Below, one piece after another: positions 12,875-45,148 of a stretch of 64,000 nucleotides of DNA. Below the pieces are notes generated by a model. The model was given only the letters and a program-made list of their open reading frames with translations. It searched no databases and was not told where the DNA came from. A program made the translations under genes and the position numbers. Each line of letters begins with the position of its first letter. Position 1 is the first letter of the stretch. The stretch lies in the NCBI GenBank assembly GCA_045837725.1, contig JBEWZL010000216.1:62001-126000 (forward strand), written 5' to 3'. The DNA is from Vermamoeba vermiformis (taxonomy: Eukaryota).

Positions 12875-12988
12875 TATGTAAAAAAAAATTGTTCTTTTAC
12901 TATTAATTGAATACAGTAAAACATTCAATAATAATTCAATAGTTTCTCCTCATGATAACATTTAGACAAGTTCAGTTGAACTTGGGAA

Positions 12989-15322
12989 TTACTTAAATGA
13001 ATGAACAACACTTGCAAAAGGACCCAAGTAACTGTTCAAATCATGTGTGATAATATAGCTTGGTCTAGTGTCTTCATCTACCCAAAGTTCTCTAACCTGC
13101 TCATCAATATTGTTCTGCACCATTTGGTTTGTAAAGAAAAACAGTACAATATGGACTTGATCCATAAACTCTCTGAATGTAGGGTCAGTCTCATTTTCAA
13201 TTGCTGCAAGAAGTTTTTTCCACTCCTTGACAACCATTGTAGCTGTCAACTCTGTTTGACCATCACATGCAAATTCGTTTTTGTGAGCTAGCATGACAAA
13301 TTTGCCTGCACTTGTTGTGCATTGATACAAGTCTATTGCATCTGCTGCTGCTCCATTAGTGTTTCTAAACAGATATGTCAACATCTCTTCTTTTGGAAAG
13401 CTAGTCCTCTGCTGTGCTGTAGGCCAAGTAGTTGTGCCTGGCCAACGATGTACTAATTGAACAAAAGTTTTCTTGGTAATCTTGACTTCAAAGTCTATCA
13501 AATTGTAGCACATTGCACCATTAAACAGCTGAGTCAACTGAACTGAAGTTATTCCACAAGCTAAGAATGCATCCAGCCTCATTGTTTGATACAAGCAGGA
13601 CAGCATTTCAAAGTCTTGCCCACTCAGTGTGTATGCAGGATCACGTAGCAAATTCCAAAATTGCATGAATGGAGCTGGAATTAATGTTTGTTCCATAACT
13701 ACCATGCACAGAAATGGAACAGAAGTAAATAGCGCATCCCCTCTTTGAATTGTTTGCATCATGCCACTAGCCACTAGTGAAGCAAGAGACACCTGCTTGT
13801 TGCCAACTTGAATTGTTCGATCAGCTTCATATAGATTGCCAGTAAGTGTCCAAGAGATTGCTGCTCTGAAAGAACTTGGATCTGAGAGCAAAGCACTGTA
13901 TCTGGCTCTGAAAGTATTGAGGGCCTTAATTTGCACATCCATCATATTAACTTTGTCAACGGCAGTGTTGAGATCTTTCAATGCTTGCAAGACCAGTTCA
14001 AGCATTCTAGGTACACCTCCAGTGTTAGCAATTAATCTAATGAATGACACAATGTTCTTCCAATTAGCAGGAATAAGATTCCAGTCAGGCTGAGTAGCCA
14101 TTACATCAATTACAGCTGCTGTCTCTGTTGTATCAAGTGGTTGTAAGTGGAGCCAAATATTTGGAAAATTAGCTGTCCAGTCTCTAGCAAGTTCATCTTT
14201 GATTGGACCAACCATAGTTCCAGTGAATAACAGTATTGAAGGTGTTTTCTCATAGATTAGTGACAAAATCTTAATGGCCTCCACTGCTACATCACTGCCA
14301 ACATTAAGAATCAAAGACTGAAGTTCATCTAAGTGCCAACAGATTGTCAACTTGTTAGTGCTTGTTGAGTAAACACTGTCAAGATAATTTGCAATATTTG
14401 ATAACTTGAACCAAGAAGGCAATTTGTTGACGTCCCAAGTGTCAATGCCAATGCCAAACAATGATTTCAGGGCTCTTGACACAAGCAAGTAGTTTGCCAC
14501 AAAAGAGCTGCTTTTTCCTTTCAGAAGTTGAAGTTCAGTAGTCTGGATGGCTGAGCCAGCATCAAAAGATATGTGAACAAACAGAGTGTTCACAAAAAAC
14601 TGGAGGATTTCAGGGTCACCACTCTGTTCAGCTCGTTTTTTGAGTTCATTGGGCAGTTGTAGTGCAAATCTTGTCTTGCCAATGCCTGGTGATCCAATCA
14701 CAAACAATCGTGCATTTGCAAGCTTGTTTGGTTTCTCTTTGTGCAAATTTGTGAGGTGAAGCTTAACATAGTGCCACACTTCATCGTATTGTTTAGTTCT
14801 TCCCATTAGTGGCATTTGCTTGCCACATCCTTGGATCTGCAAATATGGTTAATACGGTTATTAGAAACGTATATCTTAACATACGATGGAACTGTCTACT
14901 TGGATGAGGTTTTTGTTGATCAAGAAGCTTGTCTCGTCTTGCCAGAAAAAGTTTATGAATCCATTGATCATTTTCCAGAGATGCATTGGCTTTGCTGGCA
15001 ATTCAGGCAAAGGAAATATCTTCTTTTAAAAGCCATTAGGTCCAGTGTAATTATTAATGGTTTGGATGCAAAATCTATTCGGTTAAAAAAATTAAATAAT
15101 ACCTGTAGTAACCGTTGCACGTTGCAGGGAGTGTACATCTTGGGCAACATCAGTTCGACGCACTTTTTTTGGTTGCTCCTCTGGCGAGTCCGCTAAAATT
15201 AAAATTAATTCTGATGAACGACCATTAAATAAGTAAAATAATTATGTAATTAATTATTAAAACCAAATTTAATAAGGTTACTTACTCTCCGAAATAGGTC
15301 TTTTCTTCCGCGGCTGACTCAT
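12989..15322 (-). CDS. Crinkler-like P-loop NTPase with C-terminal restriction-endonuclease-like domain (copy A); apparent frameshift near 15025
   Basis: Walker A GSPGIGKTR, Walker B ICWHLDE, GGVPR, QDFE and FRNTNGAAAD segment; ATG 15322 (MSQPRKKRP) on short upstream exons. Confidence 0.7.
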
Positions 15323-15520
15323 CGTTGCAATTCTACCGCTAATTTGCAGGCAGGTTAGTAAGCGCTGTGAGGAAACGAGTAGTGACTGTCGCTGCAATAG
15401 AGGAAGTTGTAAAACGCTAATCTTCCTTTTTTTTTACGTTTTGGTTCTCACCATAGACCAAGTTTGAACTGCTTTGCGAAATTTCGAATGAGCGCTTAAA
15501 GCCTCTTCGAAGAAAAGGGT

Positions 15521-42236: not shown

Positions 42237-42472
42237 AACTACAATACTGAAGCTTTTGTCTATTAGTAGATGTTAATAGCAACATAAATATAATACTTGA
42301 CTTGAACTTAAGGTCTTTAAGTTGCCGCTGGTACGAAGATGCATCCGTTTTGAGCTCTGCTTTTTGACCATTTATCCGTGTCTATTGTTCGTATTGAAAT
42401 TGAGTTGTATAAGTATCGTTTATTTTGTTTATTTAATTTATTTGTTCTAGAACGCTCAACAAGAAAAAACAG

Positions 42473-44985
42473 ATGAGCGCATCTCAAACCGAAAAAGAAG
42501 CAGGAATTAATTATCAATCTTCTCCTACAGATGTTGCCGAATATCTTGCTCGTCAGCTCCCTTTCTTGACCGAATCAGCAAAAGAAAAACTGATCGAGGC
42601 GCAATTTAATGGATTTGCGGTCTTATGCTACGAGAATAAAGATTTAATCATGGAAGATTTACAAAATATGGAAATATTTGGTCCGACAGACCCTACAGCG
42701 CATAAAGAACTTTTGGCAAGAATGATAATAACTTTGGCGAAGTCGATCGACCAGCAGGAGGAAGTAACCAAGCTGCTAAAATGCAATTATACGAATGTAG
42801 GCGATTGGCTTGCATCTGCACGCGTTTTAGAACCCGAAGAGGCTACTACAAACGCGTTGTTTTTGGATCTTCCCGTGGATCCGTTCTGCCTCATGTATTC
42901 CGATTTAGAAGCGCTACTTACCGATAAAGAAGTAATACCGCTTAAGAAACATCGAGTAAGAGCTATTTGGACAGCCATAAGTACCATAAATCCCAGTTAC
43001 GTTGAACGCGAATCTAATCCACGAACAGAAAAAAGAACCAACGATGGCTACGGCATGAGAGAATCGAGCAAAAGTACGCATTAATTTTTATAAACTTGGA
43101 ATAATGTTTAAAACAGAGCGAAGCTTCGAGGAGGCGATAGAAGATCTCGCTCCACCAAAGCACCCTCGAAAAGGACTACGTAAGTATTGCATACAGTGTT
43201 ATGTTTTTTCTGAAATATTTTAGGTGCTGCAGACGCCTTTAATTGTAATAGAATAGTCCCTTGGACTAATGATTCTGAAACAACCTTGATCTCGCATATC
43301 CTGCAAATCTGCAAATTGAATTTCGATGCAAACTTGACACTGCAAAGACAAATGTTTGGCACTTCATTGCAACATTCTCTTTCTTGCCTGACAGGTGGAA
43401 AAATGTTTGAATTCCTGCTGTACAATCCACTAGGTTCAAATGAACTTGACAGGATTGACAATGCTCTTTGCCAAGTCACCAACAATTTGCAGGCATTGTC
43501 CAAGATTGTATTGCTGTACCAAGTTTCAGGGGCTGGAAAGACCAAATATGCCTATGATTTAGCCAGCAGAGGCTACACATTGGTTTTGAGACTCATCAAA
43601 AGTGACATACAGCCCATCACTCAAACACTATCAAAGGCAGCCCAACAATATGGCTCAATTCTTGACGTTCAGCAGCGCTTTGATTTCACTTGGTACTCTT
43701 TATGTGTTCCCTACTTGTGGCTATTTGCACACTTGAAGTTTCTTGAATACTACCAGCAAACTCTTCTTCCAAAAATTGAAGCTAGCTTAGTCAACTGCAC
43801 AAGCAAGTAGCATAAGATTAGTTAGCATTGAATCACTTGCTTATTTCTTTTGCAGTTACTCTCACCAATGTTCAAAAGTACCAATTGTTTCACCTGGCAC
43901 AAACAAATGGATCAATTGCCAAAGACTACATTGCACACGTAGTTTATACACACTTGGCTAAGATGACCCATACTATGGAGAAGCCACAAAGCCTTGTCGA
44001 ACAACTTCAAAAAGATATTGGCAAATTATACAAGTACCTTCAAGTTAAGGTAAGTTAAGTTTACTTCAAGTTGATTGTGTTGTTAACAAGCTTAGGCCAT
44101 TGTGTTTGATGAACTCTTTACTCTCACAAATGTTGGAGTTGGCTGCTTCATGCACAACAGTGATTTGCAGAAACTTGCTTCCTCTTGTGATAACTATTCC
44201 CAAGTTTGTGAAATGGTTTACGCACAACAAAAGGAAATGCATGACAACTATTTTGACATTACTATGCTTGAATTGCCAGAGCCTGCTGCAAATGTTTCAC
44301 TAAAGCCCACATCAGTGGTCAATGGTTTTATGCACCTGATTGGCTCATTAAATAAGTTGGGCATGCCTTTTTTGCTCGTTGACACCAGCAAGAGAGCTTG
44401 CAAATACTATTTGTTTGGATTAGACCTAAAGATGATAGTGCCAGATATCTTCATAGATACAGATGCAATGCGTAAGTCACTACTTGACAACTGTATGTTT
44501 TGTACTGAACTCAATTAAGTGCACTTCTTGGAGTATTATTTTGGACCATCAAATCAGACTGAAAAACTGAAGCCTCTGTTGAACAAGTTCAAAGGCAGAG
44601 GTCTGTTTTTCTTCCAAAGCCTAGTGGTTCAATATCTGGTGCCCCAATTGCAGAAAAACAAACCGACTACAAGAGCAGAAGTTGATCAAATCATCATAAC
44701 ATTGTTGCAAATTGGAGATGAGAGAGATGCAGATCTCAGGCAACTGCCTATGTGAAGAGATTCTTTGACTCAGAACATGTTAGTGATCAAGTCAAAGCAA
44801 AAATTTGCAGCTTATGCAATGGTGGAAATGTAACACTTGAAGAATCAGAGCTTGGAAAAGTTGACAAAGAAGTTGGCCAATTGATTTCATTCCTTAAAAA
44901 ACATGAAGATACAATCTTGTGGCAGTTTTCAGAGCCATTCATTTTAGAGCAGATTGTGCAATACTTCAACAACAAGTCTGCCTAA
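42473..44985 (+). CDS. SAM-like-header Crinkler-like P-loop NTPase (copy C); frameshift near 44740, possible pseudogene
   Basis: SPTDVAEYL...AQFNGFAVL header; YQVSGAGKTK; IVFDEL; EPFILE; collinear with copy B. Confidence 0.62.
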
Positions 44986-45148
44986 GACAGCTCTTGCTGA
45001 CAGTACACCAAAACAAAAAGTTACAAAGCTAACAATAACAAGATGCAGTGGTCCAAATGTATTGTACAAGTGTTTGTTAATCTTTATTATTTTTCATTTT
45101 TTTTAAACAATAAATAAAAGGCTGTTAAATAACAATTTGGGTTCTAAC

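Follow-up and report, generated by a model that had tools for sequence, protein, structure and literature searches.

CpG deserts over the bodies of intact orphan NTPase genes in Vermamoeba vermiformis, a probable footprint of locus-specific methylation

Three CpG-poor blocks in CpG-rich DNA

We analyzed a 64-kb stretch of the Vermamoeba vermiformis genome (assembly GCA_045837725.1, contig JBEWZL010000216.1, positions 62,001 to 126,000), hereafter termed the window, in which the bodies of three protein-coding genes, designated A, B, and C, are nearly devoid of CpG. All coordinates below are positions in the window, which has a GC content of 38.7% and contains 2834 CpG dinucleotides, corresponding to an observed/expected ratio (o/e) of 1.18. 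With their limits refined from single CpG positions, the three depleted blocks, to which no strand is assigned, were placed at 12866-14634 (desert A; 7 CpG in 1769 bp, bordered by the CpGs at 12865 and 14634), 22897-24951 (desert B; four inner CpGs at 23442, 23900, 24603, and 24707, and a longest CpG-free gap of 703 bp), and 43325-45154 (desert C; eight inner CpGs and a longest gap of 490 bp). Altogether, the deserts comprise 19 CpG in 5654 bp (o/e 0.09), where approximately 272 would be expected from the background density, and the rest of the window contains 2809 CpG in 58346 bp (o/e 1.28).

The depletion was evident at every scale examined. The 1-kb windows starting at 13001 and 14001 in desert A had CpG o/e values of 0.15 and 0.21 (TG/CA 1.61 and 1.54), those in desert B 0.06 and 0.12, and that starting at 44001 in desert C 0.11. 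Elsewhere, the per-kb values ranged from 0.9 to 1.8, windows of the same GC content included. When 400-bp windows were slid along the sequence, 63 of 637 had an o/e below 0.5, and these merged into five stretches, namely the three deserts plus 35501-36200 and 36301-36700, both of which lie within one other open reading frame (ORF; see below). The distribution of CpG o/e along the window is bimodal. The median spacing of CpGs is 15 bp window-wide, and the longest CpG-free gaps (703, 546, 490, 471, 458, and 411 bp) are all located inside the three deserts. An earlier note on this DNA had counted CpGs by hand, and we reproduced its counts for 12961-14820 (10 CpG, o/e 0.14), 22861-24900 (6 CpG, o/e 0.085), and bases 1-300 (18 CpG); for 43291-45120 it had given about 9, essentially the 10 that we recounted (o/e 0.15). 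The blocks are also unlike GC-matched DNA, with the neighbouring 1-kb windows of GC 0.33-0.42 showing o/e values of 1.1-1.8. The CpG deficit in the three blocks is thus confirmed and lies far beyond chance.

Outside the deserts, both CpG (o/e 1.28, rising to 1.49 where no ORF is present) and GpC (1.28) exceed expectation. The excess of CpG suggests that the bulk of the genome may be unmethylated.

Gene A encodes an AAA+/STAND-type NTPase

Gene A (12989-14815, minus strand) is a single open frame of 619 codons (stop to stop, 12989-14848). Its likely start is the Met of 'MPLMGR', and its relatives begin at a matching motif. A candidate upstream exon is found at 14879-15025 on the same strand, together with a GT..AG intron joining it to the frame. 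The product is an AAA+/STAND-type (ORC/Cdc6-like) nucleoside triphosphatase (NTPase) with a C-terminal alpha/beta domain. The first ~430 residues of its AlphaFold model (pLDDT 90.4) retrieved ORC1/Cdc6 (E 1e-08), CED-4/Apaf-1, plant NLRs, and the transposition ATPases MuB and TnsC in a Foldseek search, and G55, G57, K58, T59, D174, E175, G210, T211, and R281, which cover the Walker A, Walker B, sensor, and Arg motifs, are invariant in alignment A2. The Pfam AAA matches were all sub-threshold. In the C-terminal domain, which may be nuclease-like, a D...QxK-like pattern is conserved in the relatives, and gene A itself reads K-N-E.

A HMMER scan of 1.84 billion representatives recovered only 30 relatives of gene A, with close ones in P0001 (89% identity) and the fragment P0003 (83%). 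Three of the 26 aligned relatives, P0013, P0019, and P0020 (E 1.6e-08 to 6.6e-06 to gene A), bear the Crinkler N-domain of Pfam (PF20147) at E 1e-21 to 3e-12, and one relative carries a delta-endotoxin N-domain. PF20147 was not detected at E up to 1 in the gene A ORF, scanned without the candidate upstream exon at 14879-15025.

Genes B and C are paralogs without a detectable link to gene A

Gene B (22519-24742, plus strand) is a multi-exon gene whose start codon lies upstream of 22519 and whose stop codon is at 24740-24742. Exon 1, extending to 22798, is CpG-normal (14 CpG in 280 bp). Intron 1 (22799-22854, GTAAGT..TGTAG), the single frame-keeping solution, contains one CpG and leads in frame to a large exon that encodes a Walker A motif (GAGKTK). 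Further introns were modelled near 23532-23604, 23782-23829, 23975-24015, and 24235-24278. Gene C (43104-44985, plus strand; stop near 44983-44985) is a collinear paralog of gene B. It has a small CpG-normal 5' exon (43104-43179; 6 CpG in 76 bp), followed by an intron at 43180-43223 and further ones including 44050-44095 and 44472-44519; the ORF at 42437-43081 upstream may be spliced on via a candidate intron at 43074-43116. Every frame change in the two genes can be bridged by a short GT..AG intron, and all intron positions given here are GT..AG frame-keeping models inferred from the sequence, not from RNA.

Three RNA runs bearing the same species label (~13 million records each) yielded 29, 26, and 38 reads aligned to 12001-26000, none of them at least 99% alike. 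These reads back a GT..AG intron at 25818-25973 in a neighbouring gene; none fell on gene A or B, and they are too few to speak on expression or introns there.

The pieces e2 to e6 of gene B matched gene C in the same order in a tblastn search (31-49% identity), and BLASTP aligned the large exons of the two at 31% identity (E 2e-26); both genes were classified from exon pieces only, not from spliced proteins. A word-based search of longer proteins with the large exon of gene B found no homolog, which is a weak negative. In the ESM Atlas, the clusters nearest to gene B were unnamed eukaryotic ones (Mucoromycota and Basidiomycota; score 0.95), recognized below the usual level and taken as a lead only. 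PF20147 was absent, at E up to 1, from the exon pieces of B and C scanned and from the upstream ORFs 22519-22803 and 42437-43084. When a B/C profile was compared with the gene A family, the match was confined to 18 residues around Walker A (hhalign probability 3.9%). We thus regard B and C as an orphan P-loop family without a detectable link to A.

The earlier note had described the three genes as one Crinkler-like family. B and C are indeed paralogs, but all that A has in common with them is the Walker A loop. 'Crinkler-like' is applicable to gene A alone, and there only indirectly, through the three relatives with PF20147, and is not applicable to B and C.

The N-terminal exon of gene B and the ORF upstream of gene C were not significantly alike (E 0.40), and a SAM-like identity considered for both was dropped for want of Pfam support. 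At position 22944, within the large exon of gene B, 12 bases of the window are missing from the DNA contigs of run X1, a length difference that keeps the frame. Elsewhere in 12001-26000, variant clusters occur at about one-third of the depth (e.g., 182/584), a hint that the genome is present in more than two copies or that a close paralog exists.

Limits of the deserts and integrity of the genes

The deserts do not begin at the 5' ends of the genes. Desert B starts ~40 bp into the large exon and desert C ~100 bp into the corresponding exon, while in gene A the CpG density declines across the initial ~200 bp of coding sequence. On the 3' side, all three extend 125-210 bp beyond the stop codon and stop sharply within the spacer to a convergent neighbour, the coding sequence of which is CpG-normal up to its own stop codon. 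The depleted unit is therefore the gene body plus the 3' end, and the promoter-proximal part is spared. The spacers to the convergent neighbours are 12875-12988 for A, 24743-25233 for B, and 44986-45148 for C, and those of A (114 nt) and C (~163 nt) are CpG-free throughout.

Genes A, B, and C are intact, native-looking, and apparently functional rather than decaying pseudogenes or recent foreign inserts, as their short GT..AG introns resemble those of the neighbours and the frame of gene A is open over its entire length. No direct or inverted repeat bounds or connects the blocks, and no DNA-level repeat of at least 20 nt was found between or around them in the window. Neither transposase-type, integrase, nor reverse transcriptase Pfam domains were detected in the pieces scanned from the three genes. 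A transposable element was rejected on these grounds, and the words 'transposon-derived' and 'dispersed' in the earlier note are unsupported for these loci.

If the coding modules had been taken up from a giant virus, another eukaryote, or a similar donor poor in CpG, they could have kept the composition of the donor, with or without silencing by host methylation. Among viral structures, gene A is matched best by an uncharacterised Pithovirus LCPAC104 protein of similar length (624 aa; E 8.9e-10 over 507 columns), which agrees with such an origin at the level of the fold, and viral-derived genes are reported to be preferentially methylated in several protists in the parts of the study consulted (PMC12344493). 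Nevertheless, the match reflects only the general AAA+ fold (TM 0.34, 14% identity), and no relative of gene A was found in viral contigs with any of three queries (A alone, A2, and A3) or in JGI metagenome contigs with A2 and A3. The next viral structural matches to the gene A model are two Sylvanvirus proteins. The deserts moreover enclose host-type short introns, themselves CpG-free, within genes spliced to CpG-normal 5' exons, and two paralogs at 31% identity are both depleted. Thus, we consider a foreign origin of the composition improbable.

The fit between deserts and genes is also relevant to the idea that a repeated family was targeted through homology. Methylation or CpG hypermutation of duplicated segments could be guided by DNA pairing, as in repeat-induced point mutation (RIP) or methylation induced premeiotically (MIP), or by small RNAs, and the desert would then be the duplicated segment. 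MIP methylation is coextensive with the repeat. In line with this idea, gene A has close relatives (P0001 and the fragment P0003), and the deserts of B and C cover the collinear homologous region and the 3' end but spare the non-homologous 5' exons. However, the lack of DNA-level repeats mentioned above speaks against it, B and C are too diverged at 31-49% protein identity to pair as DNA or to share small RNAs, gene A is unrelated to B and C, and a fourth, unrelated orphan ORF is partly depleted. Classical RIP, which favours CpA-to-TpA changes, raises TpA, and produces stop codons, is excluded by low TpA (0.59 vs 0.82 in the background), frames that are open and free of nonsense codons, and the absence of duplicated DNA in the window; the suggestion of a RIP-like process in the earlier note was not borne out. 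We judge homology-dependent targeting to be unlikely overall, although not without appeal for gene A with its 89% relative; it cannot operate between B and C and does not account for A together with B, C, and the fourth ORF.

Nature and age of the depletion

Dinucleotide o/e values were compared among the pooled deserts, 19 control ORF pieces, and the rest of the window as the background. CG stood at 0.09 in the deserts, 1.18 in the control pieces, and 1.28 in the background. TG (1.57, 1.08, and 1.02, respectively) and CA (1.50, 1.11, and 1.02) were both raised in the deserts, GC was not lowered (1.37, 1.21, and 1.28), and TA was lower than in either comparison set (0.59, 0.72, and 0.82). Expressed as fold changes, CpG is 13-fold down and TpG/CpA about 1.4-fold up, and the CpG shortfall of ~220 is of the same order of magnitude as the TG plus CA surplus of ~290. 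The abundance of TG and CA and the composition expected of CpG-to-TpG/CpA decay, both put forward in the earlier note, are therefore borne out, with GpC unchanged.

The deficit is independent of coding. In gene A, the observed and expected CpG numbers were 5 and 16.5 at codon positions 1-2, 1 and 27.9 at positions 2-3, and 4 and 28.1 across the 3-1 boundary, and there is a single NCG codon against 76 NCA codons. CpG in the control ORFs was mostly near or above expectation at every codon position, with two of them low at positions 1-2. The six inferred introns and three 3' flanks in the deserts contain no CpG in 801 nt, whereas 33.1 would be expected from ORF-free background DNA of lower or equal GC (Poisson P 4e-15), and the 3' flanks alone contain none in 501 nt. 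As the earlier note had also stated for the introns, the inferred introns share the depletion. Since all codon positions and the non-coding parts are affected, the depletion is not a matter of codon choice.

These figures bear directly on whether selection against CpG in transcripts, acting on codon usage or mRNA stability or favouring escape from a factor that senses CpG, could have produced the deserts without methylation. The depleted regions do correspond to transcribed units and are mostly coding. On the other hand, the fully depleted introns and 3' flanks largely refute this explanation, the loss at every codon position, the 3-1 boundary included, is accompanied by a reciprocal rise of TpG and CpA, and the 5' exons of the same transcripts are undepleted. 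We therefore assign it very little probability. The composition is what CpG-to-TpG/CpA decay via methylation would predict, being CpG-specific, with reciprocal products, GpC untouched, and independent of coding, and this match appears well supported.

The depleted state looks old and near equilibrium. Sixteen of the 21 arginine codons in gene A are AGR, and AGA codes for all four invariant arginines. Likewise, B and C are both depleted despite sharing only 31-49% identity. An inherited composition would have drifted back toward the local o/e of >1 over such divergence, and the process would thus have acted at each locus. Composition alone cannot date the process, and the loci might have been methylated only in the past, or the gene bodies might derive from a methylated compartment, with the methylation now gone. 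Such a historic footprint seems improbable to us: an o/e of 0.09 is at or below that of heavily methylated genomes and would relax toward the background value of 1.28 once methylation stopped, and two old paralogs are found in the same depleted state.

A fourth, partly depleted ORF

The two additional low-o/e stretches belong to an ORF of 695 codons at 35029-37116 on the minus strand. Its mid-part (35541-36878) shows intermediate depletion (22 CpG in 1338 bp, o/e 0.50, TG/CA 1.40), and its ends are CpG-normal (o/e 1.27 and 0.98). CpG in this ORF is low at codon positions 2-3. Weak F-box-like and ankyrin signals were seen, all Pfam matches being below the threshold, and a word-based search, a weak negative again, found no homolog. 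Because this orphan ORF is unrelated to A, B, and C and yet half depleted, the case for family-specific targeting is weakened. The target class may rather be a broader set of lineage-restricted or orphan genes than one family, and targeting by family membership, as the earlier note had it, is unproven.

Methylation of orphan gene bodies as the probable cause

We propose that the deserts were probably produced by long-standing, locus-specific CpG methylation of orphan NTPase gene bodies with a protected 5' end, followed by deamination. The bodies of the three intact, lineage-restricted P-loop NTPase genes would have been CpG-methylated in the heritable cell line over a very long time, with the surrounding gene-dense DNA left unmethylated, and spontaneous deamination of 5-methylcytosine (5mC) would have turned about nine-tenths of the body CpGs into TpG or CpA. 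The mark would set in no more than ~200 bp into the main coding exon and continue until the transcription unit ends on its 3' side, leaving the promoter side, the 5' exons, and the first intron untouched. We infer that 5mC is responsible, that its deposition continues to this day, and that being orphan or of the conflict type, not membership of one repeated family, is what makes a gene a target. Such a choice could be likened to the repressive or facultative methylation reported in some fungi and protists. The depleted ORFs are indeed orphan or nearly so, as gene A has only the 30 relatives described above and none were found for gene B or the fourth ORF.

Several observations weigh against this proposal. 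Several neighbouring ORFs without a Pfam match have normal CpG, and therefore the lack of a known domain is not sufficient to make a gene a target. Sparing of the 5' end is absent from the descriptions of silenced genes in the parts of the cited protist papers available to us. Surviving CpGs were predicted to lie in constrained arginine codons, and this prediction failed, with the five CGN codons of gene A occurring at variable positions. Finally, the DNA contigs of run X1 showed seven variant sites inside desert A, none of them at a CpG and hence no sign of continuing CpG-to-TpG bias, in a sample too small to weigh.

A bolder version of the methylation hypothesis can also be formulated. A set of intact, conflict-type NTPase genes akin to Crinkler-module and STAND-like proteins may be subject to constitutive CpG methylation of the gene body, the 5' end remaining free of it, and the identity of a gene, not its repetitiveness, would decide whether it is picked. 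These genes would form an arsenal under epigenetic control that the organism unlocks only during certain stages or when attacked. We hold this version to be rather doubtful. If it were true, the methylation-driven mutation rate might speed the diversification of such NTPase genes.

Regardless of that version, the footprint would offer a sequence-only route to the genes methylated over evolutionary time in this organism. The genes putatively marked are intact orphan NTPases, one of which is related to the modules of Crinkler effectors, and are neither housekeeping genes nor obvious transposons. If methylomes confirm the proposal, the three loci would be clean single-gene cases with sharp limits in a gene-dense region, on which one could study how a simple eukaryote picks individual genes to methylate, and whether the genes so picked are silenced, poised, or evolving fast.

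Other features of the window

Two tandem paralogous genes on the plus strand (1-1907 and 2648-~4900) encode a Thr/Pro-rich, extracellular-looking region and a hydrophobic segment. The ORFs that follow contain the kinase-like motifs IGAGAFGKVF and IGAGAYGKVF, and the N-terminal parts of the pair have no Pfam match. Several inverted-repeat arms (I1, I7, I10, and I11) connect 38.8-40.0 kb to 41.1-42.0 kb and suggest an inverted pair of genes at 38698-39042 (minus strand) and ~41846-42033 (plus strand), papain/cathepsin-like by an ORF motif recognized by eye. A dispersed 5S rRNA gene (53970-54088, plus strand; 104.7 bits) and a tRNA-Asn (GTT) gene (46753-46825, minus strand) lie among the protein-coding genes.

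Comparison with known systems

In the gene-body methylation of invertebrates and plants, the CpG o/e of genes is bimodal, the 5' end is spared, and the depletion is moderate and resides in conserved, broadly expressed genes. A low-CpG gene class beside a high-CpG class and the sparing of the 5' end are common to those systems and the present loci. In contrast, ARPC4-like, RRM, and kinase ORFs in the window have CpG at or above expectation, and the depleted ORFs are orphans with an o/e of 0.09. Gene-body methylation of this type was rejected, as the ORFs of conserved type are CpG-normal and the orphans are depleted.

RIP in Neurospora and MIP in Ascobolus and Coprinus are repeat-linked processes that mutate or methylate cytosines in a defined segment. 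The deserts resemble their products in being defined segments and differ in the lower TpA, the open frames, and the absence of DNA repeats in the window. With respect to the Crinkler (CRN) effectors, the NTPase module of gene A is distantly homologous to the module located behind the Crinkler N-domain in P0013, P0019, and P0020, but gene A itself lacks that N-domain, and neither B nor C could be linked to the family. In the literature consulted, partly in excerpt, we found no description of comparable CpG deserts in Crinkler-module genes or orphan NTPase genes.

Among protists, Acanthamoeba, Cyanophora, and Naegleria have been reported to carry repressive 5mC on silenced genes, young transposons, and viral-derived genes, with no housekeeping gene-body methylation (Sarre et al. 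2025, PMC12344493). As far as the portions consulted go, methylation there falls on lineage-specific, non-housekeeping genes, as we propose for the present loci, whereas the genes in this study are intact, isolated, outside viral islands, and without viral relatives in the contig scans. The term 'CpG depletion' is not mentioned in the main text of that paper.

The closest parallel may be found in Rhizophagus irregularis, in which CG methylation is bimodal and 18% of the genes are highly methylated (Dallaire et al., bioRxiv 10.1101/2021.03.30.436303). According to the sections of that preprint consulted, 80.2% of the highly methylated genes have no known domain, 11.9% are transposon-related, 4.8% are high-copy, and 0.4% are crinkler genes; the methylation profile across such genes is transposon-like, and the core genes are unmethylated. 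In the same sections, no analysis of CpG depletion was found. The loci described here fit this kind of marked gene, mostly domain-less and in a few cases of the crinkler type. The two cases differ in that 5mC was measured by nanopore sequencing in Rhizophagus and the present loci are known from their sequence footprint, and in that each gene of the present study stands alone among CpG-normal neighbours and has its 5' end spared. As methylated orphan and crinkler genes have already been measured in Rhizophagus, the window provides a well-defined example of the phenomenon rather than a new principle. Particular to the V. vermiformis loci are the extreme depletion (o/e 0.09), its confinement to single genes within gene-dense, CpG-rich surroundings, the spared 5' end, and the intactness of the genes concerned.

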